Notes under the pieces: generated by a model
Databases searched by the model: none
Seen by the model: only the letters and a program-made list of their open reading frames with translations
What the model was told of the DNA's origin: nothing
Origin: Bacillota bacterium
Lineage (GTDB): Bacteria; Bacillota_I; Bacilli_A; RFN20; CAG-288
Length of the DNA stretch: 64,000 bases
Direction of reading: 5' to 3'
NCBI GenBank assembly: GCA_023459795.1
Contig: JAEWSP010000018.1
Span: 30,946-94,945, forward strand
Shown here: one piece after another, positions 869 through 62,677 of the stretch
Layout: each line of letters begins with the position of its first letter
Numbering within the stretch: position 1 is the stretch's first letter
Made by a program: the position numbers and the translations under genes

Positions 869-894
869 GCCGCTGAGAAATCAGCGGCTTTTTT
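869..894 (+). terminator. intrinsic terminator
   Basis: GCCGCTGA-gaaa-TCAGCGGC stem-loop followed by TTTTTT. Confidence 0.75.
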
Positions 895-952
895 GTTTCG
901 GAGATAGGTTTTCGGTTAGAATAAAGAGAACGAGAAAAGGAGAAGACGGAAA

Positions 953-2593: not shown

Positions 2594-2625
2594 CCAACCC
2601 GTTGCATAAATAAGAAATTGTTATT

Positions 2626-2661
2626 GAAAAAGAACCAAAGCATAAGGCTTTGGTTCTTTTA
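2626..2661. terminator. bidirectional intrinsic terminator between convergent genes
   Basis: GAACCAAAGC / GCTTTGGTTC stem with an A-run on the 5' side and a T-run on the 3' side. Confidence 0.7.
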
Positions 2662-2663
2662 TT

Positions 2664-4568
2664 CTACTTCTTGTTTTTATTCAGCTTTCCAAGCATGAAC
2701 AGGGCCATGGAACGGAGGACGAGAAGGAAGGTAAGGCCGGTGTCTCCAAGGACCGAGATCCAGAGAGGAAGAGACGGGATGACCAGGTTCAGGATCATGA
2801 TCGTCACCTTCACTAGGATTGCAACAACGACGTTGGAGATTGCCATATTCTTCGTCTTCCCGGAAATCCGGATAAGCTTCTCCAGCTTGCCGGGGTTGTC
2901 ATCCAGGATGACAACATCGGCATTCTCGACAGCCAGGTCGCTTCCAAGCCCTCCCATAGCAATGCCGACATCGGCAAGGGACAAAGAGGCTGCATCGTTT
3001 ACCCCGTCTCCGAGATATGCCATCGTTCCTCCCTTCTTCTCCTTCTCGATCACGTCCGTCTTCTCCTTCGGGAGAAGACCGGAGTAGACAGCATCAATAG
3101 ACAGAGCAGAAGCCAAGGCCTCGGCATTCTGTTTCCTGTCTCCGGAGATAAGGACAGTCCGGATACCTTCCTTCCGTAAAGAAGAGATCAAAGCAGGGAC
3201 TTCTTCCCGCATCGTATCCGAAAGGAGCGCATATCCGGAGTACTCCCCGTCTACGGAAAGATAGAGAGCCGTCCCCTCTCCTTCGCTTTCTTCGATGCTC
3301 TCATCCTCGAGGAAGGATTTCTTTCCTACCTTGAGCTTGTGTCCTTTGTAGGTGCACTTGACTCCCTTCCCTTCGACTTCTTCGTAGTCCGATACAAGGG
3401 AAGGGTTCCCTTGCCTTGCCTTTTCTACCGCAATAGCAATCGGATGGCTGCTTTCCGACTCGGCAGCGGAGAGGTAATCCATAAACGTATCTTCATCAAT
3501 ACCGCGCGGCTTGACCAGGGCTAAAGACATCTTCCCTGTCGTCAAAGTACCGGTCTTGTCGAATCCGACTGTCTTAAGGGAGGCAAGCCTATCGAAGTAG
3601 GTGGCACCCTTAACCAGGATTCCGTACTTCGAAGCCAGGCCTATCCCGGATACATAGCTTAAAGGCACAGAGATAACAACGGCGCAGGGGCAGGAGACGA
3701 CTAGGAAGGATAGGGAGGTATAGATCCATCTCGACCAGATATCCTTGTTTCCGGCACCCTGGATAAGAGGAGGAAGAACCATGACAACGAGGGCAAGAAG
3801 CATAACGATAGGGGTATAGATCTTCGAGAACCTGGTGATGAACCTGTCCGCCTTGGACTTCTTCCCCTTGGCTTCTTCGACTAGCCGGCTCATCTTAAAG
3901 ACGGCAGAATCGGCATATGCTTTTTCTACCCTTGCCTTTGCCTCTCCGTGGGTAAGGATGGTTCCGGATACGATCGGATCCCCTTCCTTCTTTTCCACCG
4001 GGATCGGTTCGCCGGTAAGGGAGCTTTCATCGAACAGACCGTTTCCGGATAGTATCGTAGAATCGCAGAGAACCTTGTTTCCGGCACAGAGAGCAAACAC
4101 ATCTCCGACCTTCATCTCTTCCGGACCGACTTCTGTATAGGTTCCGTCCTTGCCAAGGACCTTTGCCTTCTCCTTCTTTAGATCAAGGGCAGAGGTTACG
4201 GCGTTCCTGGATTTCTCTTCCGCCATCTCGCTGAAGAACTCTCCGACCTGGTAAAGGATCATGACGAGTACCGCTTCGAGGTACTCGTTATGATCCTTTC
4301 CGAAAGCACGAAGAAGGAATGCACCAATGGAGGCAATAGTCATCAAGGAATACTCGTTGAAAGGCTTTCTTTCGGCAAAGGTTTCTTTTAAGGCATTCCA
4401 TACTACATCGTAGGAGATGATAACCCAGGAGGAGAGCATTACAATCAGGTTCACATAGAACGGGAAGTTCTCTTCGTTAAGAAGAAGACTCCCCAAAAGA
4501 GCAAGAGCTAAGGAAGCTGCAATCCTAAGGCAGAGAAGGAAGAGTTCCCTCTTGGTTTCCCCGGCCAT
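2664..4568 (-). CDS. heavy-metal-translocating P1B-type ATPase (Cd/Zn/Co-type), no N-terminal HMA domain
   Basis: 634 aa. It has the CPC transmembrane metal motif (SCPCAVV), the DKTGTLT phosphorylation site and the GDGVNDA hinge. No GMxCxxC domain is visible at the N-terminus. It lies immediately downstream of an ArsR-family gene. Confidence 0.85.
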   Translation of the reverse strand: MAGETKRELFLLCLRIAASLALALLGSLLLNEENFPFYVNLIVMLSSWVIISYDVVWNALKETFAERKPFNEYSLMTIASIGAFLLRAFGKDHNEYLEAVLVMILYQVGEFFSEMAEEKSRNAVTSALDLKKEKAKVLGKDGTYTEVGPEEMKVGDVFALCAGNKVLCDSTILSGNGLFDESSLTGEPIPVEKKEGDPIVSGTILTHGEAKARVEKAYADSAVFKMSRLVEEAKGKKSKADRFITRFSKIYTPIVMLLALVVMVLPPLIQGAGNKDIWSRWIYTSLSFLVVSCPCAVVISVPLSYVSGIGLASKYGILVKGATYFDRLASLKTVGFDKTGTLTTGKMSLALVKPRGIDEDTFMDYLSAAESESSHPIAIAVEKARQGNPSLVSDYEEVEGKGVKCTYKGHKLKVGKKSFLEDESIEESEGEGTALYLSVDGEYSGYALLSDTMREEVPALISSLRKEGIRTVLISGDRKQNAEALASALSIDAVYSGLLPKEKTDVIEKEKKGGTMAYLGDGVNDAASLSLADVGIAMGGLGSDLAVENADVVILDDNPGKLEKLIRISGKTKNMAISNVVVAILVKVTIMILNLVIPSLPLWISVLGDTGLTFLLVLRSMALFMLGKLNKNKK

Positions 4569-4571
4569 AAC

Positions 4572-4868
4572 CTACTTCGCCTCCGTGGCGTGGGCATAGA
4601 CGACAGAGAGCAGGGAGCTGACATGGTCATCGGCAAGAAGGTAGAACACCTTTGTTCCGTCCTTCCTGGTAGAGACAAGGTGTGCTTTCCTAAGCACCTG
4701 GAGCTGATGGGAGATCAGGGACTGGCTGGCTCCTACTTCTTCTACCAGCTGGGAGACGTTCTTCTCCTGGCCGATCAGGCAATAAAGGATCTTGAATCTT
4801 GTGGAATCGCTGGCGACGCTTAGAAGCGTCTCCATCCGATCCAATGTTTCTTCATCCGGTAGATTCAT
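4572..4868 (-). CDS. ArsR/SmtB-family metalloregulator
   Basis: 98 aa. Winged-HTH pattern RFKILYCL...VSQL...GASQSLISHQLQVLRKAHLV. It forms an operon with the P1B-ATPase, separated by a 3-nt gap. Confidence 0.8.
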   Translation of the reverse strand: MNLPDEETLDRMETLLSVASDSTRFKILYCLIGQEKNVSQLVEEVGASQSLISHQLQVLRKAHLVSTRKDGTKVFYLLADDHVSSLLSVVYAHATEAK

Positions 4869-4882
4869 ATATCTGCCTCCTT

Positions 4883-4936
4883 TATGAATGGTGATTCATA
4901 TTTACGCTATTAGTATATATGAATCGTCTTTCATAT
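4883..4936 (-). promoter_or_regulatory. promoter plus two TGAA/TTCA inverted repeats (candidate ArsR operators)
   Basis: On the minus strand: -35 TTGAAA (4936-4941), an 18-nt spacer, and -10 TATACT (4912-4917). IR1 ATATGAA-n6-TTCATAT (4917-4936) fills the spacer. IR2 TATGAAT-n4-ATTCATA (4883-4900) sits just upstream of the RBS. Confidence 0.55.
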
Positions 4937-5012
4937 TTCAAGATATTTCTTTCTTTTTTTGAAAAACCCGAGGTATTGCCCTCGGGCCTTTTCTCCTATG
5001 TCTTTTCTGCTT

Positions 5013-5510
5013 CTACTTTCTAAACAATGTCTTCTCGGTGTCCCCGTCCGTCTTGATCCTAGCAAAAGCGAATAGAACCAGGAAGAGAAGAGACAGACCG
5101 ATATAGACATAGCTTCCCCAGGAAGCTTCGATGTTCGTATTGGCCTGGCTTAGGAAGATCGGGAAGGCGACAAGGCATCCTAGATGGGCCACGTAGAAGA
5201 TATAGAGAATGACAGCCATCCTCTTTTCATACTTCAGCTCCCTCTGGAAAAGGAAGGAGAGCGGGAACAGAAGGAGAAGAAGGGCAAGACCGAAGGCAGT
5301 ATAAAGAAGATTCGTGGCAATCGTCAGATTGCCTCCCGCTTCCGAAAAGCGGTAGACAGTAAATCCGGCAAGGAAAGTCTTGCCTTCTTTCGTGAAGGTA
5401 TCCATAAGGGGAGCAAACATCCAAAGCATCAGAAGAACAGAGAACAGAAGGGAGAGGTAAAAAGGCAGTCTTCTTCTTTCCCTGAGATAGCTGAAATCTT
5501 TCTTTTCCAT
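5013..5510 (-). CDS. hypothetical polytopic membrane protein
   Basis: 165 aa with 4-5 hydrophobic segments; no recognisable motif. Confidence 0.5.
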   Translation of the reverse strand: MEKKDFSYLRERRRLPFYLSLLFSVLLMLWMFAPLMDTFTKEGKTFLAGFTVYRFSEAGGNLTIATNLLYTAFGLALLLLLFPLSFLFQRELKYEKRMAVILYIFYVAHLGCLVAFPIFLSQANTNIEASWGSYVYIGLSLLFLVLFAFARIKTDGDTEKTLFRK

Positions 5511-5574
5511 ACGGTCTCCTCCTTAGGGTGGTATCTACGATATAATAGTATATCGTAAGAAAGGCCACTATCTT

Positions 5575-6591
5575 ATGGAAGAAAAGCAGAAGAATGACTC
5601 GGTGTTCATTAACCTTTTCAAGGGAGCTCTCTCCGGGCTTCTTTCGATGGTTCCCTTCCTGGACAGCAAAAGAGCAAGAGAAGACGTCTTAGTCACCTAC
5701 AGTTCCCGTACCTGGTCCTATATCCTCGGGTTTGCCATTGCTTTCTTTGTCTTCTCCCTCCTTCCCATCTCCGTCATGGAGAAGAACTTCTCCTATACGG
5801 TAAGGCTATTGGAAGCCGGATTCCTGTTTGGATCTCTGGTCGTGCTTCTTCTTCTGGTCTTTTTGGACAAGAAGGAGAAGATCGATCTTCTCCCATTTCT
5901 TCTCTCCCTCATAGGCGGAATAGGGATTGCTCTTATTTTCTATTTTGCCTTTACTCCGGCAAAGCTCTTAAGAGATGAAGAGCCGATTGCAGGAGCAGGA
6001 TTCTACAGCGTAATTATTGCCGTTGGTGGATTTTTATGCGGATACGCCGGGATCTCCATCGGATCCCTTCTAGCCGTCTCCGGTTCCTATGTAGGGCTTA
6101 TCGGAGTGATGTATCCGGCCGTCAGCTTTACGAACACGGATAAGAAGTCCGGAATCCTGATTATGGGAATCCTGTTCCTGGCTCTGTTCTCGGGACTGTT
6201 CCTCGGCCTTTATGCCGAAGGCAAAGACAGCAGAAAGAAGAACAAGGAAGCGATGCAGATCGGTTTCCTTCTTCCGATGCTTGTTATCCTGATAGTCTAC
6301 TTCGCCAAGAACAAGCCCCAAGCTATGGCTGACTCCGTCATGGTCCGGAAGCTGGTGAATTCCTGCTCCCTTATCTTCTTCTTCCTGATTGCCTTGATCC
6401 TTGGCTTATCTTCCCTTCTTCCATTATGGAAGGAACATCCTGCCTTCAAGATTTGGAAAAGGAAGAAGGATCTGGTAGACGGGCTTCTTGTGAAGAATGT
6501 AAAAGAAGAGAAGAAAGAAGATGAAAAAGAAAATGCCAAGGCCTTGGATGTCGATAAGCTGAAGAAGGCTTTGGAAGAAGAGGATAAATAG
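5575..6591 (+). CDS. hypothetical polytopic membrane protein with Lys/Glu-rich C-terminal tail
   Basis: 338 aa with many TM segments. The C-terminus is KKEDEKENAKALDVDKLKKALEEEDK. Confidence 0.55.
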   Translation: MEEKQKNDSVFINLFKGALSGLLSMVPFLDSKRAREDVLVTYSSRTWSYILGFAIAFFVFSLLPISVMEKNFSYTVRLLEAGFLFGSLVVLLLLVFLDKKEKIDLLPFLLSLIGGIGIALIFYFAFTPAKLLRDEEPIAGAGFYSVIIAVGGFLCGYAGISIGSLLAVSGSYVGLIGVMYPAVSFTNTDKKSGILIMGILFLALFSGLFLGLYAEGKDSRKKNKEAMQIGFLLPMLVILIVYFAKNKPQAMADSVMVRKLVNSCSLIFFFLIALILGLSSLLPLWKEHPAFKIWKRKKDLVDGLLVKNVKEEKKEDEKENAKALDVDKLKKALEEEDK

Positions 6592-7314
6592 ATGAGGTTA
6601 GATCGGTTTCTGGCAATCCACGGCTTCGGTTCCAGGAAGTCGGCAAAGAAGATGGTCCATAACGGGCATGTCATGGTAAACGGAGAGAAGACGCTCCTTA
6701 ACGACATGCAGATTTCCGGTACCGATAAGATCACGGTCGACGGAAAGGACGTCGAGAACGTTCCTTTCGTCTGCCTGGTCCTGAACAAGCCCCAGAACTA
6801 TGTCTGTTCCATGCTGGACGACCACTACCCGTCCTGCATGAAGCTGATTCCGGACGAATACCAGAAAAGGGTCCGGATGGTGGGAAGGCTTGATGCCGAC
6901 ACGACAGGACTCTTGATCTTCACGGACAACGGAGTCCTCAACTCCCGGCTTGCCAACCCGAAGTTCAAGGTCACCAAGACGTATGCCGTCGAAGTGAACC
7001 ATATCCTGAAGCCGGAGATGGTGGAAGAATTCCAGAAAGGAAATCTCGATATCGGCCAGGGAGACATCGCCGATTCTGCCGTTCTTGTGATCCAGGACGA
7101 ATACCATGCCGAAGTAACCGTCCACGAAGGCAAGTACCACGAGATAAAAAGACTGTTCGGCAAGTTCGGATACGATGTCATCAAACTGAAACGTCTCTCT
7201 CTAGGGCCGGTGAAGCTCGGGGATGTCGAAGAAGGGAAGTTTAGAAAGGTGAGCGAAGAGGAATACGAATCCCTGTTAGAAGCTACCCACCTTATCAAGG
7301 AGGATCAATTATGA
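6592..7314 (+). CDS. rRNA pseudouridine synthase, RsuA/RluB family
   Basis: 240 aa. N-terminal S4 domain (MRLDRFLA..G.GSRK.A..V..G.V.VNG) and catalytic motif GRLDADTTGLLIFTDNG. Confidence 0.85.
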   Translation: MRLDRFLAIHGFGSRKSAKKMVHNGHVMVNGEKTLLNDMQISGTDKITVDGKDVENVPFVCLVLNKPQNYVCSMLDDHYPSCMKLIPDEYQKRVRMVGRLDADTTGLLIFTDNGVLNSRLANPKFKVTKTYAVEVNHILKPEMVEEFQKGNLDIGQGDIADSAVLVIQDEYHAEVTVHEGKYHEIKRLFGKFGYDVIKLKRLSLGPVKLGDVEEGKFRKVSEEEYESLLEATHLIKEDQL

Positions 7315-7829
7315 ATACTCTCTGCCCGAAATGCGGAAAGGACAATACTTCCACCTTTGTGGATACGAAGCTGAAGACACATGGTTTCTTCTGCGAAGAC
7401 TGCAAGAAGGATTTCGGTGTCGATGACGGCACTGCTTTGAAGAAGAAGGAAGAAGACCTTCTTTCTTTCACATATGACCGGTCCCATGACGGAGAGAAGA
7501 AGACTTTCCGCCTAGTAAGGGATGCAGGCAAGGCAACCCTAACTATCGAAACGGAGAAGGACAAGAAGCGGGACGTATATGAACCTATCGACTTCACTCC
7601 TTATGTCGATTCCTTCCTCTCCCTGCTCTTCGAGAAGCTCTTTGTTTTGGACTGGCCTGAGACAACCAACGGTTTCCTTGTCGGGAAGGATCCCGATACC
7701 TGCACTCTTACCCTCCTATTCAAGGATAAAAGCAGCGTCAGGAAGTCCGGTTTCGTCCGCCTTCCTGTCTACAGCAAGGCACTGGACGAGATCCTCGATT
7801 CCCTTCTCTCCAGCACGAAGGAGGAGTAG
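7311..7829 (+). CDS. hypothetical protein with N-terminal zinc ribbon
   Basis: 172 aa with CPKCG...CEDC. Its ATGA start overlaps the upstream stop, suggesting translational coupling. Confidence 0.55.
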   Translation: MNTLCPKCGKDNTSTFVDTKLKTHGFFCEDCKKDFGVDDGTALKKKEEDLLSFTYDRSHDGEKKTFRLVRDAGKATLTIETEKDKKRDVYEPIDFTPYVDSFLSLLFEKLFVLDWPETTNGFLVGKDPDTCTLTLLFKDKSSVRKSGFVRLPVYSKALDEILDSLLSSTKEE

Positions 7830-8207
7830 ATGAGAACCGACTTCACGAAGATCTCCTTCTGGAAAAGGAATCCGGACAATGTTGCGGATATCCTGAGGCT
7901 GGAGATCGAATGCCTCGTCGACAAGACTTACCTTCTGAACGTAAACGGAAAAGACCGTTCCCTTCCCAAAGAGGAAGGAGACAAGCTTATAGAAGGTCTT
8001 ATTGCTCTGAAGCTGGGCGAGACGAAGAAGGAAGAGAAAGCCTACCTATACGAAGACAGGCCTCAGGACTACCGGATCAAGTTCTTCCTGGTCTTCTCCT
8101 ATCCGGAAGCCACTTATCTAGCCGTAAAGGGAATCGATCCCTTCGGCCAGAAGAACTACAAGGAGATCCAGGCTCTCTTTGCTCCGCTGTTCAAGAAACA
8201 AGACTGA
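7830..8207 (+). CDS. hypothetical protein
   Basis: 125 aa. The ATG directly abuts the upstream TAG. A strong terminator follows. Confidence 0.5.
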   Translation: MRTDFTKISFWKRNPDNVADILRLEIECLVDKTYLLNVNGKDRSLPKEEGDKLIEGLIALKLGETKKEEKAYLYEDRPQDYRIKFFLVFSYPEATYLAVKGIDPFGQKNYKEIQALFAPLFKKQD

Positions 8208-8240
8208 AAGAGGAAGCCCCCAGAAGGCTTCCTCTTTTTC
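8208..8240 (+). terminator. intrinsic terminator of the rsuA-like operon
   Basis: GAGGAAGCC-cccagaa-GGCTTCCTC followed by TTTTT. Confidence 0.8.
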
Positions 8241-8248
8241 AAGGCATT

Positions 8249-8289
8249 AAAAAGAGCCCGGTTACTTGATTCAACAATCAAGGCCGGGC
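8249..8289 (-). terminator. intrinsic terminator for a minus-strand transcript
   Basis: Minus strand reads GCCCGG-cc-TTGATTG-ttg-AATCAAG-taa-CCGGGC then UCUUUUU. It stands back-to-back with the plus-strand terminator. Confidence 0.75.
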
Positions 8290-8351
8290 CCTAACGTATC
8301 TGACCCATGGGTTGTTCCATATCTTGCCGCCCCTTCACCGCGGTTTCCGAA

Positions 8352-8572
8352 TCATCCCGGATCGTATCGCGGTCCCTTCTCGTATCGCCATATTTGCTCA
8401 TATCTCAGTCCCGAACCGTATCGCCGTATCTTAACGAATCGCCTTACCTGATCGTACCTCCGTATCGAATCATATCGCCGTACCTTATCGAATCGCCTCG
8501 TAGAATCTAACCGTATCGCCATCCCTTAACGTATCGCCGTATCGAATCGTACCTCCGTCTCTGCTCATATCG
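8352..8572 (-). repeat. 12 degenerate tandem copies of an 18-nt unit (minus strand consensus CGATAYGAT-NNG-ATA-CGG)
   Basis: Units were read directly: 8572-8555, 8554-8537, 8536-8519, 8518-8501, then a 5-nt insert CGAGG, then eight more units down to 8352. The pentamer TATCG occurs 10 times on the plus strand in this span. Confidence 0.85.
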
Positions 8573-9059
8573 TTGACTCGGCTAGTAACGGAACGTTGTC
8601 TCAAACCGTTTCGTACCGCCGTACCTTCTTGGCGAAACACCTTGCGTCCCGGACTTCGAGAAACTAAGACTCACTCATTGACTCGTCTTGCCTCGAAGCG
8701 ACGTAGCTCGTTCCGTCTTTCCGGTTCCACTCATCCGGAACCTTTCCGTATCTAAACAGTGCACTGGCTACTCGAAGACTGACCGGCTCGTCTTGCCTCC
8801 CGGATTTGTATCTCTGACCTTCTTCCCGTATTGCAGAGAAGACCTAAACCAGAGTGGGGATAACGCCTTTAGTCCCAGGAGAGCCGAAACAGCTAGCCTT
8901 CCCTTACCTGCTCGGATGGGTACCCGACGAAATAACATAGTCTCGAAGCGACTATATCATGGCCAATGATATACATATTGAGAGTATCCGACAAAAGGAG
9001 GAGATTATTGCATCCCTTCTAGAAATTTATAGATATTTGACTTCTAATAGGTTAACGAA

Positions 9060-9326
9060 TTAGAAGCTGTACTCAGAAGCTAACTTCTTGAAGCCGGCAA
9101 CTGCCAGATCTTCATCTGCTCCGTCGCAAACAATCTTGAGGGATTCCCCCTGGCTGATCGTCGAGATGGCGAAGACATTCATGATAGACTTGAGATCGCA
9201 CTCGTCACCATTCTCAAGAACCATCTTGATGTTGCACTTATGATGATTTGCTTCCTCTACCAGCTCTGCACTAGAGCGAGAAGAGAGACCATTCATGGCA
9301 TTCACTTTGATTTCGAATGTTTTCAT
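9060..9326 (-). CDS. HPr-family protein lacking the active-site His (Crh-like paralog)
   Basis: 88 aa with the HPr fold pattern. The canonical G-[IL]-H-A-R-P is replaced by G-L-S-S-R-S, while the regulatory serine motif K-S-I-M is retained. Confidence 0.75.
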   Translation of the reverse strand: MKTFEIKVNAMNGLSSRSSAELVEEANHHKCNIKMVLENGDECDLKSIMNVFAISTISQGESLKIVCDGADEDLAVAGFKKLASEYSF

Positions 9327-9350
9327 AGGTTTATATCTTTCTGCACCTTT

Positions 9351-9379
9351 ATTATAGAGAATTTGGTAAGCGTTTACAA
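9351..9379 (-). promoter_or_regulatory. sigma-A-type promoter of the HPr-like gene
   Basis: On the minus strand: TTGTAA (9374-9379), a 17-nt spacer, and TATAAT (9351-9356). Confidence 0.6.
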
Positions 9380-9763
9380 GTGAGGCGGGAAATTTAAGGT
9401 TTTTCTGTGCGTCTTAGCGTAACTGAAGGGTGGCTAACTTCAGGAAGCGCCCATCCAGTCTTTTGGCTTAGAGAGCTCTTCTTAGCTATTATAAGCTATT
9501 AATTACTTTTTGCGGTCATTTCTTTTTCTTTTTTTGCGTATTCTGACATTTTCTTTTTCTTATCGGTTCGTTCCTCATCTTTCCCCTTTCATTCTTAGGT
9601 CGTTTCTGCATGCCTTTTATATCCCCTTTCTTCTTCTTTTTGGTTGCAAATCCAATCAAAAGCCGTCATTTTCGCTGCTTCTATTTTCGTAGCGGATTAA
9701 TGCCTGTCGAAACAAAGCCTAAAGAGTTATCATATAAAGGCAAACGAAGGAGCTATTCCCCCA

Positions 9764-10948
9764 ATGGATGAAACAGCGAATAAGCCGGAAGAGAAGAAAC
9801 AGATAGTAATGAACGCAATGCGTCCGACAGGAAAGCTCCATATCGGGCACTATGTCAGTGCATTAAGACTTACCCTGGAACTCCAGAATTCCGGAAAATA
9901 CGACGAAATCTATGAGATGATTGCCGATACCCAGGCCTTGACAGATAACTTCGGCGTTCCCCAGAAAGTCCGGGACAACGTAATCGAAGTCGCCCTCGAC
10001 TATCTTTCCGCCGGTCTTGATCCGAACAAGACCACCATCTTCATCCAGTCCCAGGTCCCGGAACTTACGGAACTTACCTGCTACTATCTCGATCTGGTCA
10101 CTCTTTCCCGTCTGGAGAGGAATCCGACCGTCAAGTCGGAACTTGCCCAGAAGGATTTCGGTGATACCATCCCGGCCGGATTCCTCTGCTACCCGGTCAG
10201 CCAGGCTGCAGATATCACGGCATTCGATACGGATCTGGTTCCGGTCGGAGAAGACCAGGCTCCGATGATCGAACAGGCGAATGAAATCGTCCATAAGTTC
10301 AATTCCCTTTACGGAAAAGGAAAAGAAATCCTTCATCCCTGCAAGATCCTTCTACCGGAGAACAAGGCTTCCTTACGCCTTCCCGGCACGGACGGAAAGG
10401 CTAAGATGAGCAAATCCATCGGGAACTGCATCTATCTTAGCGATGACAAAAGAACCGTTGACAAGAAGGTCTCCACCATGTTCACGGATCCTACCCATCT
10501 CAACATCACCGACCCCGGCCATACGGAGAACAACCCGGTCTTCATTTATCTCTCCGCTTTTGCTACCGATGAATCCTTTAAGAAATACTGGCCGGAATAT
10601 AAGAACCTGGACGAACTCAAGAAAGCCTATGAGAAGGGCGGACTCGGAGATGTACCGGTCAAGAAGTTCCTGGCCTCGGTACTTAACGAAGTCCTGGATC
10701 CGATCCGGGAGAAGAGAAAGTACTACGAAGCCCACATCGAGGATGTCTACAAGATCCTGGAAGTCGGTTCCAAGAAAGCAGAGGAGAAGGCTCTTGCTAC
10801 GGTCTACCGCGTCCGGAGAGCACTCGGCGTCAACTTCTTCCATGATCCGAAGCTGATCGAAAAGCAGTCGAAAGCCTATCGCAAGAAGCTTGCCGACGAT
10901 GCGGCAAGAGAAGAATACCTTGCCAAGCAGAAAGCCGGCCAGAAGTAG
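9764..10948 (+). CDS. trpS: tryptophan--tRNA ligase
   Basis: 394 aa. Class I signatures GKLHIGHY and KMSKS, plus YPVSQAADI. The C-terminal tail is basic. Confidence 0.8.
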   Translation: MDETANKPEEKKQIVMNAMRPTGKLHIGHYVSALRLTLELQNSGKYDEIYEMIADTQALTDNFGVPQKVRDNVIEVALDYLSAGLDPNKTTIFIQSQVPELTELTCYYLDLVTLSRLERNPTVKSELAQKDFGDTIPAGFLCYPVSQAADITAFDTDLVPVGEDQAPMIEQANEIVHKFNSLYGKGKEILHPCKILLPENKASLRLPGTDGKAKMSKSIGNCIYLSDDKRTVDKKVSTMFTDPTHLNITDPGHTENNPVFIYLSAFATDESFKKYWPEYKNLDELKKAYEKGGLGDVPVKKFLASVLNEVLDPIREKRKYYEAHIEDVYKILEVGSKKAEEKALATVYRVRRALGVNFFHDPKLIEKQSKAYRKKLADDAAREEYLAKQKAGQK

Positions 10949-10974
10949 AGAGAAGATCAGGGAAGAACAGCACC

Positions 10975-11006
10975 GGCCTTTTCCTATCCTGGGAAAAGGC
11001 CTTTTT
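10975..11006 (+). terminator. intrinsic terminator after trpS
   Basis: GGCCTTTTCC-tatcctg-GGAAAAGGCC followed by TTTTT. Confidence 0.8.
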
Positions 11007-11119
11007 CGTGTGTTCCGCTTTACTATCTTCCTCTCTTCCGTTATCCTTGAAGCAAAGCGGGCAAGGCTATTTTCTTCTTAATCCAGAAATAGGTTTTCTG
11101 CCGGAAGAAGGACCAAGCT

Positions 11120-12830
11120 ATGAACAAGAACAACGGGCGCCGTCTAATGGCCTTCCTCAACGACCATCTTGCCAAAGTAGGGAAAAAGTATCTCTCCGTC
11201 TTCGATGCCTTCGGAAAAGAGCCGGAGAGAATCAGCGAGAAGACGCTTCTTTCCATCGTGAAGAAGAACAGGAATACGGAATTCGGAAGGAAGCACCATC
11301 TCGACCAGATCCATTCCCTTTCCGACTACCGGAAGGAAGTCCCTGTTTCGGACTACGAAGACTATAGGGAAGCAATCCTTAGGATGCAGGACGGGGGAAA
11401 GGATGTCCTCTTCCAGGGAAAACCGGTCTACTATACGGATACTTCCGGATCGACGGGGAAGAGCAAACGGATTCCTATCTCTGCTACCCAGCAGAAGGCA
11501 ATGAAGAAGAAGAAAGGAAATCCTCAGATCATCCCCTATCTGGAGAAGAAGAACGGATGCTATGACAGGAACCACCGGAAGATCCTCGCCCTGATGGCGA
11601 ATGCCGACATCACCTATACGAAGGACCAAACCCCGATCGGGGATGTCGTCTCCCTGATGCTTTCCAAGGTCAGCGGATTGATGGGGCTCTTCTTTACCAC
11701 CCTTTGGCAAGCCTCACCTCGAACGAGATCCATGACCGCCTCTATGTCCACCTTCTCTTCGCGCTTCCGGAAACGGACATCTATCTCATCATGAGTGCCT
11801 ATCTCAGCGAAACCTGCGGAATGGTGAACTATCTCTTCCAGAACCAGGAACTCTGCTCCATGATCTTGCAGAAGGGAAAATATCGGACTGCGTAAAGCTT
11901 TCCCCCGCCCTAAAGAAGGAACTTGAAAAGAAGCTTGTCCCGCACCCGGAAAGGGCTGAGGAACTAAAAGAAATCCTGGCTTCCGGAAGAGACGGGATCC
12001 TGACCAGGATCTGGCCTAGCCTCACCGTCGTAAGCGGGGTCGGCAGTACAGAGAACAGGCTGCGCCCGTATACGCTTCTTGTAAAAAGGTATCTAGGAAG
12101 CAAAGGACATATTTATTATGCCGCCTATAATTCCTCGGAATCCTTGATGGGGCTGGCAACGGACTACGACACCTTCCTCTATGCACCGGTCCTGGATATG
12201 GCTTATCTGGAATTCCTTCCCCTCGATGAGAAGGAACAGCCGATCCCGGGGAAGATCCTTTCCGTATCCGAGCTTACGGACGGGGCAAAGTACGAGACTG
12301 TCCTGACCAGCCTCTCCGGTCTCTATCGTTATAGGATGGCAGACATCGTCAAGGTCAGCGGACGGAAAGGAAGGCTTCCTCTATTCGAAATCCTAGGACG
12401 GAACAAGGTCCTCCTCGATGTCATGGGAGAGAAATGCACCTTCCATCAGGCAGATGACGCGATTGCCCTCCTAGGAGAAAAGATCGGGGAGAAGGAACAT
12501 CCCATCTATGCCTACTGTGCCACGGAAGGGAATAAGGAAAACCGGTATACCTTCTTCCTGGAAATCAAGGATTCCTCTTCCCTGGATCCGAAGAAGACTT
12601 CTCTCCTTCTGAAGGATTCCCTAGCCCTTGCTTCCCCGGATATCCGGTATGCTTTCGAGGAGGAAGGGCTCCTTCCTCCCGAAGTCTTCTTCGTGAAGGA
12701 AGGGACTTTCCAAAAATACCTCCACAATGAGAACCGGGAAGGAGAAGAAACAAAGCACTCCATCAAGGAGATCAAAGTCCTGAGGACCGAAGAGCAGAAG
12801 AAGTTCTTCAGGGATCATATCGAAGGATAG
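11120..12830 (+). pseudogene. GH3-family (acyl-acid amido synthetase-like) gene interrupted by two -1 frameshifts
   Basis: The N-terminal part (11120-~11700) carries FGRKH...YRKEVPVSDYEDY...YTDTSGSTGKSKRIP. The GH3-like sequence continues in a second frame (~11700-11880) and a third frame (11880-12830). The three pieces together span about 570 codons. Confidence 0.7.
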
Positions 12831-12891
12831 GAAAAGAGGCGTCCCCTAGAGGATGCCTTTTTCTTGCCAATAAACAGTCTTCTCTTTTTTG

Positions 12892-13929
12892 TCAGTCTCT
12901 ATCCGGCAGTTTTCCCGGCGCTTTGGATATGCCTTCCAGATACGAGTCGAAGGACTCCTTCCTGAAAGCATCGATTGCAGCTTCCACTTCCGGGTCCAGA
13001 TCCTTTATCCGGCCTCTGCCGATTACAAGAGGATCGATATACCTCCTCTTGGAATAGACCTTGATCGTATGCTCCTTCTCCGTCTTTTGTTCTTTGACTT
13101 CGGTTAGGTTTGTGAACCATTCCCAGTTATTCTTTGTCTCTTGGTTACCTAGAATTTTCTTGATAACAACCTCTTCCGTAGAATAAAGGTCGTTTTCCGA
13201 AAGAACGGACAAGGAGAAAGCTCTCCTAATTCCTCTGGCCAGGGCCTCCATCCCGTACCTGTCTTCTGGAGTCACATATACTTTGGAGTTCTGTATGGTT
13301 GCAAGAGCAAACTTCCTGGCAAGCTCCTTAGAAGAAAAAGCAAGCTCTTCGACTCCGTCTTCGTTTACCGTAACGGAAAGATCCCGGTACATTGCTTCTA
13401 CTTCTTCTCTAGAGGCATGGGAATAGTTCAGGAAATTGGAGAGGGTGTATTCCAGCCTGTCGGCAGAAAGCCTGGGAGAATCGTTGTCTGCAATCGGATA
13501 GAGATGGTAGTTATCGACATCCTTGGTAGATAGTCCAAGCTTCATAAGCTCTTTCTGGATTACGGGATCTTCTTCGATGATGCAGGTTGTCCTCTCCTCC
13601 GTTGCTTCCTGGGTAAGGTAATCCCCTTTTACGAAGTCGACGACGTGGGCAAAGGCCGGGGTTGCTATATCATGGAACAGACCGGAAAGGCTCTCCTTCT
13701 GATTCTTCCGGAAGTGATAGACGATTAGAGCAACTCCTAGAGAGTGGACGAACCTGGAATAAGGTTCGAAATCCTTATAGAACGGGAAGGAGGTATATTC
13801 CATTCCGCAGTGCATCCCGACATGCTTTATCCGTTCCAGGGAAGGAGCAGGAAGGAAGCCTTCCAGAAAGGAAGGGATATCCTTGCTGTAAAGAGAAAAC
13901 AGGAACTGCTCTTTTTCTATGTGGGACAT
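12892..13929 (-). CDS. HD-domain phosphohydrolase family protein
   Basis: 345 aa with H...HD pattern (HSLGVALIV...LFHDIATPAFAH). Confidence 0.65.
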   Translation of the reverse strand: MSHIEKEQFLFSLYSKDIPSFLEGFLPAPSLERIKHVGMHCGMEYTSFPFYKDFEPYSRFVHSLGVALIVYHFRKNQKESLSGLFHDIATPAFAHVVDFVKGDYLTQEATEERTTCIIEEDPVIQKELMKLGLSTKDVDNYHLYPIADNDSPRLSADRLEYTLSNFLNYSHASREEVEAMYRDLSVTVNEDGVEELAFSSKELARKFALATIQNSKVYVTPEDRYGMEALARGIRRAFSLSVLSENDLYSTEEVVIKKILGNQETKNNWEWFTNLTEVKEQKTEKEHTIKVYSKRRYIDPLVIGRGRIKDLDPEVEAAIDAFRKESFDSYLEGISKAPGKLPDRD

Positions 13930-14017
13930 GTTTTTTCCTCTGTTAAAAGACCATTATAGCAAAGAAGAGCAACGGAAATGAGGTTGCCCTTGCCCCTCCC
14001 TTTTTGTATAATAGATT

Positions 14018-14100
14018 CACCATCGCGGTGTATACCGTCGAACTTGGTCAGGACCGGAAGGTAGCAGCCATAAGATCGGTGTCCACGTGCGGTGGCTTTT
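14018..14100 (+). ncRNA. ffs: small (4.5S-type) signal recognition particle RNA
   Basis: Conserved domain IV core GGTCAGGACCGGAAGGTAGCAGCC. The closing helix pairs CCATCGCG with CGTGCGGTGG. TATAAT lies at 14007-14012 and a T-run at 14097-14102. Confidence 0.8.
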
Positions 14101-14111
14101 TTATTAAAAGA

Positions 14112-14558
14112 ATGAATAAAGAAGACCTAGCTATAGCTTTATCGGAACTAGAGAAGGAGTCCTCTCTCCTGTTGCAGAAAGGAGAGGTTCCTGTTTCCGC
14201 AGTCCTTGTTCTTGAAGACGGGACAAGGATCGTTACCGGAAACAAAGTCGAAGAAAAGAACAACCCTTTTCTGCATGCCGAAATAGTTGCGCTCGAAGAA
14301 GGAATGAAGAAAACCGGGTCGAGGTATCTGAAGGGTGCCACCCTTCTTGTCTCTCTGGAACCCTGTCTTCTCTGCATGGGAGCAATCCTGAAAGCAGGGA
14401 TAGAGGATCTTTATTACTGCCAGGACGACAAGAAGAAAGGCGCTCTTTCCTACTACCATGTCTTTGTCGATGACGTACTCCGTGTCCACACCATAAAAGA
14501 CAGGGTCCTGGAAGACAACCTTAAAGCTGCTTTTGCATCGCTACGTAAGGACCAATAG
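14112..14558 (+). CDS. tadA: tRNA-specific adenosine deaminase
   Basis: CDA-fold zinc motifs HAE and PCLLC. The start is moved to Met37 of the listed ORF because the upstream part overlaps the SRP RNA. No clear SD sequence. Confidence 0.75.
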   Translation: MNKEDLAIALSELEKESSLLLQKGEVPVSAVLVLEDGTRIVTGNKVEEKNNPFLHAEIVALEEGMKKTGSRYLKGATLLVSLEPCLLCMGAILKAGIEDLYYCQDDKKKGALSYYHVFVDDVLRVHTIKDRVLEDNLKAAFASLRKDQ

Positions 14559-14575
14559 TCTTTTTCTATAAGTTT

Positions 14576-15262
14576 CTATTTCGTCTCGTCTTTCTTCTCT
14601 TCTTTTGTTTCTTTGATCTTTTTCAATGAATCTTCTGCTTTTCCTTCCGGGAAGATTGCCTTGAAGGCGAAGAAGAAGACAATAGTCGTGATTCCGGAGG
14701 TAGCAAAGGTCTGGCAGACCTGATAGAGAGTTCTGGACATGACTTCCGATGCCGGTTTCAGCCAGAGGGAGTTCAAGGCATTGGAAAGCAGCGTTACCAG
14801 GATATTGGCAAGCGTATAAAGCAGAACCTGGGGAAGAACCTTGCGGCGGGATTTATAGGTGATATTTCTTTGCAGAGGGAAATTGATTGCCTGGGTCGTG
14901 AAGTAGGTGATAAGCCAGCTGAAGAAATACCCTAAGCCTCCTCCGTAGATTACGTTTCCGGACTGATCCCTAAGGACATCATATCCGAGGATTGCCCAGA
15001 CAAAGCGTCCGTTTCCGTAGGGAAGCGTAATTCCGGGCCAAAGCCATTCCGTTCCGGCAAGCCGCATACCGAAAGCAAGCGGCAGGAAAGTATAGCCAAG
15101 ATACTGGAAAACAGTCAGGACCCATCCGATAAGGCCGAACTTGATGAACTGCCAGATTGTCTTGTTTAGATTCGGGTGGTGGAACGAGAAATGCTTCCAC
15201 CATTTTGGCGGAAGAAGCTTCTTTCGTTTTTCCGTCGGGTTGCTGTTCTCTTCCATAAGCAA
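14576..15262 (-). CDS. GtrA-like membrane protein
   Basis: 228 aa. Pattern FIKFGLIGWVLTV with about 4 TM segments. The C-terminal tail is Lys/Glu-rich. Confidence 0.5.
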   Translation of the reverse strand: MLMEENSNPTEKRKKLLPPKWWKHFSFHHPNLNKTIWQFIKFGLIGWVLTVFQYLGYTFLPLAFGMRLAGTEWLWPGITLPYGNGRFVWAILGYDVLRDQSGNVIYGGGLGYFFSWLITYFTTQAINFPLQRNITYKSRRKVLPQVLLYTLANILVTLLSNALNSLWLKPASEVMSRTLYQVCQTFATSGITTIVFFFAFKAIFPEGKAEDSLKKIKETKEEKKDETK

Positions 15263-15448
15263 GAAACATTATATAGTTTTTCCCTAGGTTTTGTAGGGAA
15301 AAGAAGATCCTTTGTGATAAACTTAATCCCGATATGAGAAAAATTTTTATTTCCTTCCTGTCATCGCATTCCTTTTCCGGCCTCTAGCGGGCTTTTTTGC
15401 TATAGACGGAAGATACGATCCATAAAACAGTAAAGGATAAACATTAAA

Positions 15449-16558
15449 ATGCCAGAAGATTATATGATGGCCCGTTTGAAGGCCATGAAGAAGAGACTAA
15501 CCGATATCGACGACCTCTTAAGCGGTGGTTCGATGGATGTTCCTACGATGACGAAGCTTAGCAAGGAACGTTCCGGCCTGGAAAAGCCGGTCGAGCTTTA
15601 TGACGAAGTAATGAAGATGGAGTCCGACAAAGCGGATGCCGAGGAGATGATGAAGGATCCGGATCCGGAGATCAAGGATCTGGGCAAATCCACTTTCGAT
15701 GAGATGGCCAAGAAGATCGATGCCATGGGAGAAGAGATCAAGCTCTCCCTGATTCCTAAGGATGCCAATGACGACAAGAACATCATCATGGAAATCCGCG
15801 GTGCAGCCGGAGGAGATGAAGCGAATATCTTCGCCGGAGATCTTTTCCGTATGTATTCCCATTATGCAGACAGGGAAGGCTGGAAGATCCAGCTTCTCGA
15901 CAGCGAGCCTACTCCGCTTGGCGGATTCTCCCTCGTTTCCTTCCGTATCAAGGGAAAGGGCGTCTACTCGAAGCTGAAGTTTGAAAGCGGCGCACACCGT
16001 GTCCAGCGTGTTCCGGTCACGGAAGCAAACGGCAGGATCCAGACATCGACGGCTACCGTCCTTGTCATGCCGGAAATCGAGCATGTCGACATCAAGATTA
16101 ACCCTGCCGATCTCCGTATCGATACCTACCATTCCTCGGGCGCCGGAGGACAGAACGTCAACAAGACGGAGTCTGCCGTCCGTATCACCCATATCCCGAC
16201 GAACATCGTTGTCTCCTGCCAGATCGAGCGGGATCAGCTTGCCAACAAGGAAACATGCATGCTGATGCTGAAGGCTAAACTCCAGGCTCAGCATGATGCC
16301 GAGATTGAAGAGAAGGTCGGAGGCGAAAGAAGACTGAAGATGGGAACCGGCGAGAGGAACGAAAGAATCCGCACCTACAACTATCCGCAGAACCGTGTAA
16401 CGGATCACCGGATCGGCTGGAGCACCCTGAATCTTCCCAAGTTCATGAACGGGGAACTGGATGACTGCATCTTTGCTTTAAACGAAGCCAACCAGAAGGA
16501 TCTTCTGGAAGAAGAGACGAAGAAGCTGAAGGCAGAGATGGAGCAGCAGGAAAAGTAG
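15449..16558 (+). CDS. prfA: peptide chain release factor 1
   Basis: GGQ motif (SGAGGQNVNKTESAVRITHIPT) and PxT-type tripeptide (PVT). Confidence 0.9.
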   Translation: MPEDYMMARLKAMKKRLTDIDDLLSGGSMDVPTMTKLSKERSGLEKPVELYDEVMKMESDKADAEEMMKDPDPEIKDLGKSTFDEMAKKIDAMGEEIKLSLIPKDANDDKNIIMEIRGAAGGDEANIFAGDLFRMYSHYADREGWKIQLLDSEPTPLGGFSLVSFRIKGKGVYSKLKFESGAHRVQRVPVTEANGRIQTSTATVLVMPEIEHVDIKINPADLRIDTYHSSGAGGQNVNKTESAVRITHIPTNIVVSCQIERDQLANKETCMLMLKAKLQAQHDAEIEEKVGGERRLKMGTGERNERIRTYNYPQNRVTDHRIGWSTLNLPKFMNGELDDCIFALNEANQKDLLEEETKKLKAEMEQQEK

Positions 16559-59743: not shown

Positions 59744-61135
59744 ATGAAAGAAACAACAATCAACCGGCAGACAGAAAGAATCTTCCTGCTCGTCCTGGAA
59801 AATCTGAAAGAAAAGGTTCCGCAGAATATCTACGACAATGTTTTCGGTGACGGATCTTTTGGCCTGAAATCATTGGATGGCGGAAAGGCTGTTTTTGTTT
59901 CCGATAGTGAGTCTTCTGCTCAGCTTATCAAAGCTCTTTATCTCACTCCTCTTACCAATATTCTTCACGATGTAACATCGGATGAATATGAGGTGGAAGT
60001 GACAGATAGAGCCAGTTATTCCAGAAGAAAAATAGCGGTTGAGGATGCCTCTGCGCGTTTCTTCCAGAACAGCCACCTATCTCCCGCCTTCCAATTCGAT
60101 AATTTTGTAGTAGGATCCAATAATAAAGCTGCTTATCAGGCCGGGTTATTCGCTGTTGCAAAACCAGGCGTCAGCAATCCTATCTTCCTTTATTCCAAAT
60201 CCGGCATGGGAAAGACTCATTTACTGCAGGCAATCGGTAATGCCTACAAGGAGCAGCATCCGGACAGCAACGTCCTTTATATTACATCGGATGATTTTAT
60301 TGAAGAATTCGTTAAATATAGCAAAGGACTCAAAGATAGCGAGAATCTGAAAGACTTTTTCTCTACTATCGATATGCTTCTTGTAGATGATATTCAATTC
60401 CTTGCCGACAAAGACAAAACTCAGACAATGTTCTTCAATGTGTTCAATCTTCTTGTTGGACAGGGAAAACAAATTGTCTTAACCTCTGATAAGTCCCCGA
60501 TGCAGCTCTCGGAAATGGGAGATGAACACCTTCAGGACAGACTCGTCAGTCGTTTCAGCGGAGGACTTTCTATCTCCATCACGACTCCGGCCAGAGAAAC
60601 GATGATCGAGATTTTGAAGATGAAGATACGGAATAACGGATTAGATCTTTCTCTATTTGCTCCGGAAGTCCTGGAATACCTCGCCAACAACTACAGTACT
60701 AATGTCCGTGTTCTGGAAGGAGCCTTCACAAAAGTCCTCTTCGAAATGACGATTGAGAAACCCCAGGGAAAGATTACTCTTCCCTTCGTGAAGTCCATCT
60801 TCGAAGATGATGAATCCCATCGCAAGATGAAAGGCAAGGTCAGCGTAGAAGAGATTATCTCTATCGTATCCGACTACTACTCTTTGACTTCTTCCCAGCT
60901 GAAAAGCAAAGTCCGGACGAGTCAGATTGCCTTAGCCAGACAGATTGCTATGTACCTAAGCAGAAACGTCCTCTCTCTCCCTTATCAGGAGATTGGAAAA
61001 GCCTTCGGCAAGGACCATACGACCGTTCTTGCAAACGTTCAGAAGATTGAATCCATGAAGGGGAAGGATACGAGAGTCGAAACAGCACTTCTAGAGCTGA
61101 AAAAGACGATCAGTAAGGAGAGCAGCCAAGCATAA
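59744..61135 (+). CDS. dnaA: chromosomal replication initiator DnaA
   Basis: 463 aa. Walker A SKSGMGKTHLL, box VII, and C-terminal DNA-binding helix GKAFGKDHTTVL. Confidence 0.95.
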   Translation: MKETTINRQTERIFLLVLENLKEKVPQNIYDNVFGDGSFGLKSLDGGKAVFVSDSESSAQLIKALYLTPLTNILHDVTSDEYEVEVTDRASYSRRKIAVEDASARFFQNSHLSPAFQFDNFVVGSNNKAAYQAGLFAVAKPGVSNPIFLYSKSGMGKTHLLQAIGNAYKEQHPDSNVLYITSDDFIEEFVKYSKGLKDSENLKDFFSTIDMLLVDDIQFLADKDKTQTMFFNVFNLLVGQGKQIVLTSDKSPMQLSEMGDEHLQDRLVSRFSGGLSISITTPARETMIEILKMKIRNNGLDLSLFAPEVLEYLANNYSTNVRVLEGAFTKVLFEMTIEKPQGKITLPFVKSIFEDDESHRKMKGKVSVEEIISIVSDYYSLTSSQLKSKVRTSQIALARQIAMYLSRNVLSLPYQEIGKAFGKDHTTVLANVQKIESMKGKDTRVETALLELKKTISKESSQA

Positions 61136-61522: not shown

Positions 61523-62677
61523 ATGAAATTGACAATAAAGAGAACGGAACTTCTACGCCTTCTGACATACGCTATCCAGGCTATTCCGGCAAAGTCTGCC
61601 GAAGCCCAGTATATGAATTTTCTGATCGACTGCGAAGAGGACCATGTCGATATCATTGCCTCGGATGGCAATGTCTCGACCAAGATCAATCAGCCGATGA
61701 AGGATCCCAAAGGCAATGACGTCATTCTCAACATCGAAAAGGGATTGATCCAAACTCCCGCCAGAATGCTTTTAGATATCGTTGCTAAGATGGGCGGAGA
61801 TGTCGTCACCTTAGCATTAGTGGATTCCAATTTCCTGAATATCTCGGATGACACCACGGATTTCAATCTCGTTACCAAAGACGGAAAAGAATACCCGGAT
61901 GTCAATCTTACGGTTCCGGAAGGCAAGAAAGGTTTCGCTGTCTCCCTCAAGGATATGAAATCCCTCTTTGATACTACTAGCTATGCCGTTGCTACCCGTG
62001 GACCGAAGGAACTCTTCTACGGCATCAACGTCAAGGCTCATGGTGGCAAGCTTTATTTCATGGCTACCGATAGTTATAGAATGGCTCAGAATGCTGTTTC
62101 CGAACCGGATACCGAAGCAGAATTCTCCTTCACCTGCCCGATCCATGCTCTCAGCATGGTGACCGGCATCGGACAGACCGGAAACTGCCAGATCTTCATC
62201 GATGATCAGTCTGCTCTCTTCGTCACGGATGGCATTGCTCTTTCTACCAGACTTCTTAGAGGAGACTTCCCGTCTGTTGATCGTCTTATTCCGCCGGAAT
62301 TCCCGTATCAGGTAACGGTCAAGACAAGCGAATTCCTTTCTGCTGCAGACCGTGTAAAGATCATCTCCAGCGTCGAAGACAGGAACTCCCAGGTACGTTT
62401 CACTATCAGCCGCGAGAACGGCGTGACGATTTCCGCCCGTTCCACGAATTTCGGTACCTCCCAGGAAGTACTGAAGAATGCTACTTTCCAGATCAAAGAA
62501 GGAGAAGACGTCTTTGAGATCGGCTTCAATGTCGACTTCGCCATTGCTGCTGTCAAAGCCTTGGCAACGGATTCCTTCACCTTCGTCTTTGCTTCTGCTA
62601 CCCGTATGTTTATGGTAAAGAACGATAACCCTGAGAACATTCAGATTATTACTCCGATCCGTATGTCTTCCTTCTAG
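61523..62677 (+). CDS. dnaN: DNA polymerase III beta sliding clamp
   Basis: 384 aa with an N-terminus typical of beta clamps; directly downstream of dnaA. Confidence 0.92.
   Translation: MKLTIKRTELLRLLTYAIQAIPAKSAEAQYMNFLIDCEEDHVDIIASDGNVSTKINQPMKDPKGNDVILNIEKGLIQTPARMLLDIVAKMGGDVVTLALVDSNFLNISDDTTDFNLVTKDGKEYPDVNLTVPEGKKGFAVSLKDMKSLFDTTSYAVATRGPKELFYGINVKAHGGKLYFMATDSYRMAQNAVSEPDTEAEFSFTCPIHALSMVTGIGQTGNCQIFIDDQSALFVTDGIALSTRLLRGDFPSVDRLIPPEFPYQVTVKTSEFLSAADRVKIISSVEDRNSQVRFTISRENGVTISARSTNFGTSQEVLKNATFQIKEGEDVFEIGFNVDFAIAAVKALATDSFTFVFASATRMFMVKNDNPENIQIITPIRMSSF

Follow-up and report, generated by a model that had tools for sequence, protein, structure and literature searches.

A conserved HPr-family gene lacking the phosphotransfer histidine, with a cre-type operator at its own promoter, in uncultured Bacilli of the order RFN20

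HPr is the hub between sugar uptake and gene regulation in Firmicutes, and the textbook example of an HPr that serves regulation only is Crh, a Bacillus-specific extra copy. In Bacillus subtilis, seryl-phosphorylated Crh is a co-repressor of CcpA that takes no part in phosphotransfer from phosphoenolpyruvate (PEP) and enzyme I (PMC11906611). Treponema denticola, Brucella and other alpha-proteobacteria possess HPr or NPr together with HprK/P and have no permeases of the PEP-dependent phosphotransferase system (PTS) (PMC2937029). Here we describe an HPr-like gene found in a 64,000-nucleotide stretch (the window) of a Bacillota bacterium assigned to GTDB order RFN20, family CAG-288 (GenBank assembly GCA_023459795.1, contig JAEWSP010000018.1, forward-strand positions 30,946 to 94,945). 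Its product belongs to the HPr family, lacks the phosphotransfer residue His15 and retains both Arg17 and the regulatory serine, and the gene is preceded by an operator of the catabolite-responsive element (cre) type. We put at somewhat better than even, about 0.55, the probability that this is a regulatory-only HPr, which would be phosphorylated at Ser47 by a kinase of the HprK/P type and would then assist a CcpA-like repressor, as its co-effector, at cre sites that include the one at the gene's own promoter.

The gene and its two critical codons lie in the window as follows.

9060..9326, minus strand: coding sequence of an 88-residue HPr-family protein without His15 (open reading frame, Pfam PF00381, TIGR01003, AlphaFold2, Foldseek and dN/dS)
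9282..9284, minus strand: codon 15, TCT, encoding serine at the position of the phosphotransfer His15 (sequence and alignment to solved HPr chains)
9186..9188, minus strand: codon 47, encoding the serine equivalent to regulatory Ser46 of HPr, within C-D-L-K-S-I-M-N-V-F (sequence and alignment)

The product begins with MKTFEIKVNAMNGLSSRSSAELVEEANHHKCNIKMVLENGDECDLKSIMNVF, and the full translation of the minus-strand frame 9326..9060 is MKTFEIKVNAMNGLSSRSSAELVEEANHHKCNIKMVLENGDECDLKSIMNVFAISTISQGESLKIVCDGADEDLAVAGFKKLASEYSF. The Pfam PTS-HPr model (PF00381) matches the whole protein with 56.6 bits against a cut-off of 23 (E = 2.7e-15), and the general HPr family model TIGR01003 gives 51.9 bits against 47.9. 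The equivalog models are all missed by wide margins: 39.2 bits versus 110 for Gram-positive HPr (NF010352), 36 versus 153 for E. coli HPr (NF008104), and 42.3 versus 123 for the 85-residue model NF010354, which we take to be that of Crh. The AlphaFold2 model (predicted local distance difference test score 94.6) has the open-faced beta-sandwich of HPr, with the elements in the order beta-alpha-beta-beta-alpha-beta-alpha (strands 2-7, 32-37, 42-44 and 62-68; helices 16-27, 48-53 and 72-85). Foldseek superimposes it on HPr structures with TM (template modelling) scores of 0.84-0.88 and root-mean-square deviations of 1.1-1.7 A. The top matches are HPr chains, some of which were crystallized with HprK/P or CcpA, and solved HPr complexes with glycogen phosphorylase, Rsd and FruR are also among the closest. 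The best-matching solved chain is 1pch (E = 9.5e-7), a Mycoplasma HPr by its title and presumably that of M. capricolum, whose Ser46 region has the same LKSIMNV sequence as the window protein.

In HMMER alignments to solved HPr chains, residues G13-L14-S15-S16-R17-S18 fall onto G-L-H15-A/T-R17-P without a gap. The active-site loop thus reads G-L-S-S-R-S in place of the G-[IL]-H-[AT]-R-P of a functional ptsH product; there is no histidine elsewhere in the loop, nor anywhere in residues 1-27. Arg17 is retained, Pro18 is replaced by serine, and the regulatory serine is numbered 47 rather than 46 because a one-residue insertion precedes it. The preliminary description of this locus, made from the sequence alone, had proposed an HPr-family protein with serine for His15 (codon at about 9282-9284) and an intact HprK-type site K-S-I-M at Ser47; both proposals are borne out by the family models, the gap-free alignment, in which Ser47 pairs with Ser46 of solved chains, and the fold. 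Ser15 is not an assembly error, since a separate Joint Genome Institute (JGI) assembly, L048 in our numbering of loci, with 99.4% DNA identity over 16 kb, encodes an identical protein.

Close relatives form 79 clusters in the protein database. Where names are given, they read 'Bacilli bacterium', 'uncultured Mollicutes', Clostridium sp. CAG:568 or Candidatus Enterosoma, the last of which is assigned to the same GTDB order and family, RFN20 and CAG-288 (PMC8035907). For genomic comparison we assembled 85 flanking loci, 47 of them from one genome per GTDB species and 38 from metagenome contigs. Among 112 distinct family sequences, residue 15 is threonine in 109 (codon ACC, ACT or ACA) and asparagine in one, and serine occurs only in the window protein. 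Arg17 and Ser47, the latter within K-S-[IL]-M, the combination expected of an HPr(Ser-P)/CcpA system, are invariant in 111 of 111 sequences. The blocks AELVEEAN in helix 1 and CDLKSIMNVF, which comprises Ser47 and helix 2, are essentially invariant across the family; in canonical HPr the faces of these two helices contact enzyme I, HprK/P and CcpA. Some 29 positions are invariant among 24 diverse members, and the frame is full-length in the 85 loci. Synonymous sites are near saturation and the median pairwise dN/dS (ratio of nonsynonymous to synonymous substitution rates) is 0.09, which signifies strong purifying selection and therefore a functional gene.

An exhaustive profile search of 1.84 billion representative sequences showed that the next-closest proteins likewise lack His15. 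These outgroup proteins, which also come from metagenome-assembled genomes (MAGs) of uncultured Bacilli, have T, S, N, G or I as residue 15 in G-L-x-S-R and keep S16-R17 and [DN]-L-K-S-I-M-N-V. Canonical His15 proteins, a few exceptions aside, first appear at E values between about 1e-11 and 1e-13 and become dominant only at a significance below about 1e-10. Judging from these sequences, His-less HPr homologues are fairly common among uncultured Bacilli. They are labelled in the database with the generic 'HPr family phosphocarrier protein', and our literature search returned no paper describing a His-less HPr family of uncultured Bacilli. Because the outgroups differ so freely at position 15, that position appears relaxed rather than re-specialized; on the same comparison, Ser15 is a local variant of the clade-wide Thr15, and the identity of the residue has no special meaning. 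His28/His29 together with Cys31/Cys43 were also considered as an alternative catalytic or metal site. This candidate was rejected, as conservation of the four residues is limited to the core RFN20 group; the closest outgroups have K/R, Y/F, S and A in their place.

The comparison with canonical Firmicute and Mollicute HPr, represented by 1pch and B. subtilis HPr, yields the best matches in both sequence and structure, and the LKSIMNV context of Ser46, Arg17 and the order of secondary structure elements are shared. The window protein differs from these in the absence of His15, in the serine at position 18, in the insertion before the regulatory serine and in having no adjoining ptsI. With Crh it shares the HPr fold, the missing His15 and the retention of Arg17 and the regulatory serine. 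Crh chains are matched in HMMER with an E value of about 2.5e-5. The resemblance to Crh, however, does not exceed that to ordinary HPr. Residue 15 is glutamine in Crh, unlike the threonine of the family and the serine of the window protein; the genomic context differs as well, in that the gene is monocistronic, faces away from trpS and has a cre-type site at its promoter. By these sequence measures, the protein is not a Crh orthologue. The parallel to Crh drawn in the preliminary description is therefore upheld in part: a role in regulation only is the best reading and is strengthened by the operator described below, whereas Crh orthology fails on the NF010354 score (42 versus 123 bits).

A further difference concerns the company each protein keeps. 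Crh coexists with canonical HPr and a full PTS, while enzyme I and PTS permeases are reported absent from the clade studied here. In the ortholog tables of a survey of 840 Tenericutes-like genomes, enzyme I (K08483, COG1080) is listed in 0 of the 21 genomes of 'gut lineage 2', which corresponds to RFN20, and PTS EII orthologues are at or near zero in the RFN20 genomes (PMC7301438). Supplementary tables of that survey and of PMC10868615 were consulted for hprK, ptsH and ccpA; the informative rows were those of ptsI/COG1080, and the K02784 row of the survey was disregarded because it is zero even in groups known to have HPr. The term 'paralog' used in the preliminary description is unverified and probably wrong. 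Since the survey tables list enzyme I in none of the 21 RFN20 genomes, and since a second HPr was found neither in the window nor in any flank, the protein is probably the sole HPr remaining after loss of the PTS rather than a Crh-style additional copy. The HPr-family proteins of Treponema and alpha-proteobacteria are likewise kept for regulation without PTS sugar transport. In those systems, however, enzyme I (or EI-Ntr) is retained along with a His15 that can be phosphorylated, and a phosphorelay still runs; here the histidine is gone and, in the survey tables, so is enzyme I.

The second line of evidence for a regulatory role comes from the promoter.

9351..9379, minus strand: sigma-70-type promoter, TTGTAA, 17-nt spacer, TATAAT (consensus scan, 10 of 12 matches)
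9365..9378, no strand assigned: cre-like (LacI/CcpA-type) palindrome TGTAAACGCTTACC overlapping the -35 box (palindrome scan and conservation)

The gene has a promoter of its own, as had been stated before, and this layout has been conserved at the other loci, where it likewise precedes the HPr-like gene. When the upstream regions of all loci are aligned, the -35 box turns out to form the left arm of a palindrome of 14 bp, TGTAA(T/A)CGCTTACA, with the general form TGTAA-N-CG-N-TTACA, located 44-52 nt upstream of the start codon. The consensus of the CcpA operator cre is TGWAANCGNTNWCA. Of 48 species, 30 match this consensus exactly and another 12, among them that of the window, deviate at one position, which brings the species with at most one mismatch to 42 of 48. 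In the 1.59 Mb scanned, promoters of the HPr-like gene supply about 60 of the 63 exact TGWAANCGNTNWCA hits counted over the two strands. Within the 64-kb window, a single site lies within one mismatch of the strict palindrome TGTAANCGNTTACA, and it is that of the HPr-like promoter; no cre site was found elsewhere in the window. The operator accompanies the HPr-like gene even where trpS is not its neighbour, and it is also present in the metagenome contigs. Cre operators at regulated promoters are expected of HPr(Ser-P)/CcpA systems, and a cre-type site is present at this gene's own promoter. An operator placed between the -35 and -10 boxes implies repression, and its position here suggests negative autoregulation of a co-effector. 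Indirect as it is, this conserved operator is the best support for the existence of a CcpA-like partner in the bacteria concerned.

Taken together, these observations can be accommodated by the following scheme. The PTS would have been lost in RFN20 and its neighbours, leaving position 15 free to drift, to threonine nearly everywhere and to serine in the window protein. The helices that dock onto partners, helix 1 at its N-terminal end with Arg17 and helix 2 from Ser47 onwards, would have stayed frozen. At high glycolytic flux a kinase of the HprK/P type would phosphorylate Ser47, and the seryl-phosphorylated protein would bind a CcpA-like repressor of the LacI family. The complex would then occupy cre operators, including the site overlapping the gene's own -35 box, resulting in negative autoregulation.

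Several observations weigh against this scheme. No gene for HprK/P, CcpA or another LacI-family regulator was found in the window and the 85 flanking loci (about 1.3 Mb, largely syntenic), nor were genes for enzyme I, its EII partners or a second HPr. The search employed tblastn, a Walker-motif regular expression and a purpose-built HprK hidden Markov model, with CcpA of B. subtilis as a query. It should be noted that the flanks are largely syntenic housekeeping DNA and provide weak evidence on absence from whole genomes. HprK was also sought in the large protein database, once with a profile built from three solved HprK domains and once with the domain of M. pneumoniae; none of the best 120 matches listed came from contigs of this family. 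Both the kinase and the repressor are therefore hypothetical for the RFN20 clade. Many LacI/GalR regulators recognize half-sites like that of cre; TGTAANCGNTTACA is near the generic LacI/GalR half-site, and it could be a different regulator, not CcpA, that binds the operator. The replacement of Pro18 by serine and the unusually acidic helix 1 (EE at 24-25) mean that partner specificity could differ. Finally, the RFN20 genomes of the survey have about 30% G+C as compared with about 48% for the window, so that the absence of a PTS, as tabulated there, is an extrapolation for the organism from which the window derives.

The strongest competing explanation is a possibility to be taken seriously, although we give it clearly lower odds than the regulatory-only HPr: the protein may be a phosphorylation-independent adaptor that binds or modulates a metabolic enzyme or a transporter through its helix 1 and helix 2 face, with no kinase involved. 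Precedents are the interaction of unphosphorylated Crh with methylglyoxal synthase and that of E. coli HPr with glycogen phosphorylase or Rsd. The failure to find an HprK gene in the flanks agrees with this explanation, as does the presence of HPr complexes with non-PTS partners (glycogen phosphorylase, Rsd and FruR) among the closest structures. The missing HprK, however, says little on whole genomes when the flanks are syntenic. Moreover, K-S-I-M-N-V is invariant in all 111 family sequences and identical to the Ser46 region of 1pch, and the cre-type operator points to a circuit of the CcpA type; known circuits of this kind require a seryl-phosphorylated co-effector. The adaptor explanation also draws on the roles that Crh has beyond catabolite repression (PMC11906611).

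The next explanation to be weighed concerns the DNA downstream of the gene. About 850 bp without a conserved open reading frame extend 3' of the HPr-like gene, down to a convergent gene that ends at 8207. Three features were recognized in this region.

8953..8973, minus strand: conserved palindrome or hairpin TATATCAT-TGGCC-ATGATATA, 86 nt past the stop codon (blastn block in 19 loci)
8293..8952, minus strand: motif-rich 3' region with many copies of GAUACG, GGUACG, GGGAUG and GAGACG (motif count)
8248..8292, minus strand: intrinsic terminator closing the HPr-like transcription unit (-26.8 kcal/mol, z = -4.6, followed by a U-run)

The hairpin is found 8-125 nt past the stop codon in 38 of 47 species; together with the motif-rich stretch it lies directly 3' of the HPr-like gene in loci L001-L039 and L041 as well. 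Across loci, 85.9% of the alignment cells at paired positions can pair. Two pairs show compensatory changes, and the covariation score is 0.134 as compared with 0.092 in shuffled alignments. The arms change in concert from ATCAT/ATGAT to TTCCA/TGGAA, with U.G variants in addition. G.U oppositions outnumber A.C ones by 13 to 7, which fits either an RNA hairpin or a DNA operator. An opposite-strand small open reading frame that begins at the palindrome (ATGGCCAATGAT) was considered and rejected, neither its length nor its sequence being conserved between loci.

The region following the hairpin is defined by short repeated motifs. In the window, G[AG][GT]A[ACT]G occurs in 29 sense copies and one antisense copy. 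Across loci, the combined motif has a density of 19.7 per kb, about 5.5 fold the background of 3.6 per kb, and the spacings between copies peak at 5, 10, 15 and 20 nt. Single hexamers (GAGACG, GAUACG, GGGAUG, GGGAAG) are enriched 10-13 fold, while their reverse complements are almost absent. The length of the region is very variable, between about 130 and more than 1300 nt. It has no match in Rfam at gathering scores or at E <= 1, and the motif-rich part shows no excess folding energy relative to shuffled sequences (z = +0.47). No significant hairpin is present in the first 75 nt past the stop codon (z = -0.19), and terminators equivalent to that at 8248..8292 end the region in other loci. In loci L033-L037 the palindrome starts within 10 nt of the stop codon, which makes co-transcription the simplest reading; from this arrangement, the downstream stretch is probably transcribed together with the HPr-like gene. 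In character the element resembles a long 3' extension rich in motifs, which may be a platform for protein binding or an RNA of the sponge type, and not an ornate structured RNA. Of the link to an unusual RNA locus suggested in the preliminary description, the linkage itself is conserved, in 38 of 47 species; the unusual RNA resolves into this extension, devoid of excess structure and missing in some species.

Two proposals follow from this arrangement, and we regard both as doubtful. According to the first, the 3' RNA serves as platform or sponge for an RNA-binding protein that controls the level of the HPr-like protein, or else the HPr-like protein acts on the RNA. This proposal, improbable on balance, gains from the conserved position directly past the gene, at most 10 nt from the stop codon in L033-L037, from the lack of a terminator between gene and region together with the strong one at the region's end, and from the strand-specific, regularly spaced hexamers. 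It loses from the variable length of the region, from the lack of excess folding energy and from weak terminator-like hairpins that, in our own reading of the sequences, lie between gene and element in some loci (L002 and L004, for example); to our knowledge, the HPr fold has no RNA-binding activity. The motif-rich region is absent, furthermore, from L029, L047 and the distant members, which have the same protein signature; the HPr-like protein thus does not depend on the 3' region. The second proposal, equally speculative, is that a single cre/CcpA-controlled transcript, carrying a carbon-status protein and a platform with dozens of G-R-K-A-N pentamer or hexamer sites for an RNA-binding protein, forms one regulatory module. 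If true, such a module would couple catabolite signalling to post-transcriptional control.

Very unlikely, in our opinion, is the notion that Thr15 or Ser15 constitutes a new phospho-acceptor for a Ser/Thr kinase, replacing signalling through His15. A hydroxyl residue does occupy position 15 in 110 of 112 family sequences, and Arg17, which stabilizes phospho-His15 in canonical HPr, is kept. On the other hand, HPr and Crh also require Arg17 to contact CcpA; one member has asparagine at position 15, the closest outgroups with S16-R17 and LKSIMNV carry N, G or I there, and no kinase gene was found in the conserved neighbourhood. That the gene is a decaying ptsH remnant without function, as loss of the catalytic histidine and the absence of a PTS from the survey tables of the order might suggest, is effectively refuted by the dN/dS of 0.09, the roughly 29 positions invariant in 24 members, the conserved promoter and operator and the full-length frame in 85 loci.

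The HPr-like gene is monocistronic and divergent from trpS (9764..10948). It is convergent with an operon of a pseudouridine synthase gene and two genes for hypothetical proteins, and the gene order around it is preserved in 31-37 of 47 species. In the most distant members it is adjoined by tdk. A functional partner encoded in the same operon was sought and rejected, the gene being monocistronic everywhere, with trpS, the pseudouridine synthase, the two hypothetical proteins or tdk as neighbours. The two hypothetical genes (7311-8207, plus strand) come after that of the pseudouridine synthase in 31-32 of 47 species and end head-on against the repeat-rich region. The first encodes 172 residues with an N-terminal CxxC...CxxC motif resembling a zinc ribbon, the second 125 residues without a Pfam match. 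T-box control is usual for trpS in Firmicutes; in the leader of about 380 nt between the HPr-like promoter and trpS (9380-9763), neither a T-box nor any other Rfam family is matched, even at E <= 1.

The rest of the window is made up of housekeeping genes, among which dnaA (59744..61135) and dnaN (61523..62677) were identified by eye from translated open reading frames. A gene of the GH3 family (acyl-acid amido synthetase-like; 11120-12830, plus strand) is divided into two frames separated by about 350 nt, the N domain at 11120..11794 and the middle and C domains at 12144..12830; a frameshift that made it a pseudogene, or an interruption of the gene, may account for this. An island of low G+C content (0.36 as compared with about 0.49 elsewhere) with three minus-strand frames occupies 43300-45900 and may have been acquired horizontally. 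Positions 134-16254 are 99.4% identical to L048, the JGI metagenome contig Ga0172377_10001736. Sister contigs of the Ga0172378 series share sequences with the MAGs SO_2016_CLC_T1, and the names suggest a landfill or leachate origin.

In an entire order of uncultured but abundant bacteria from gut, rumen and landfill, the transport half of the system seems to have been given up and a His-less HPr with a CcpA-type operator to have been kept. New in this respect is the near-perfect cre palindrome on the gene's own promoter; the autoregulation through cre that it suggests and the repeat-rich 3' region are, in our opinion, the aspects most worth following. If confirmed, the regulatory-only role would mean that Ser46 signalling can survive loss of the PTS as a free-standing circuit. 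It would also caution against the automatic label 'phosphocarrier protein' and would offer a simple means to predict regulation by carbon source in organisms not yet grown.

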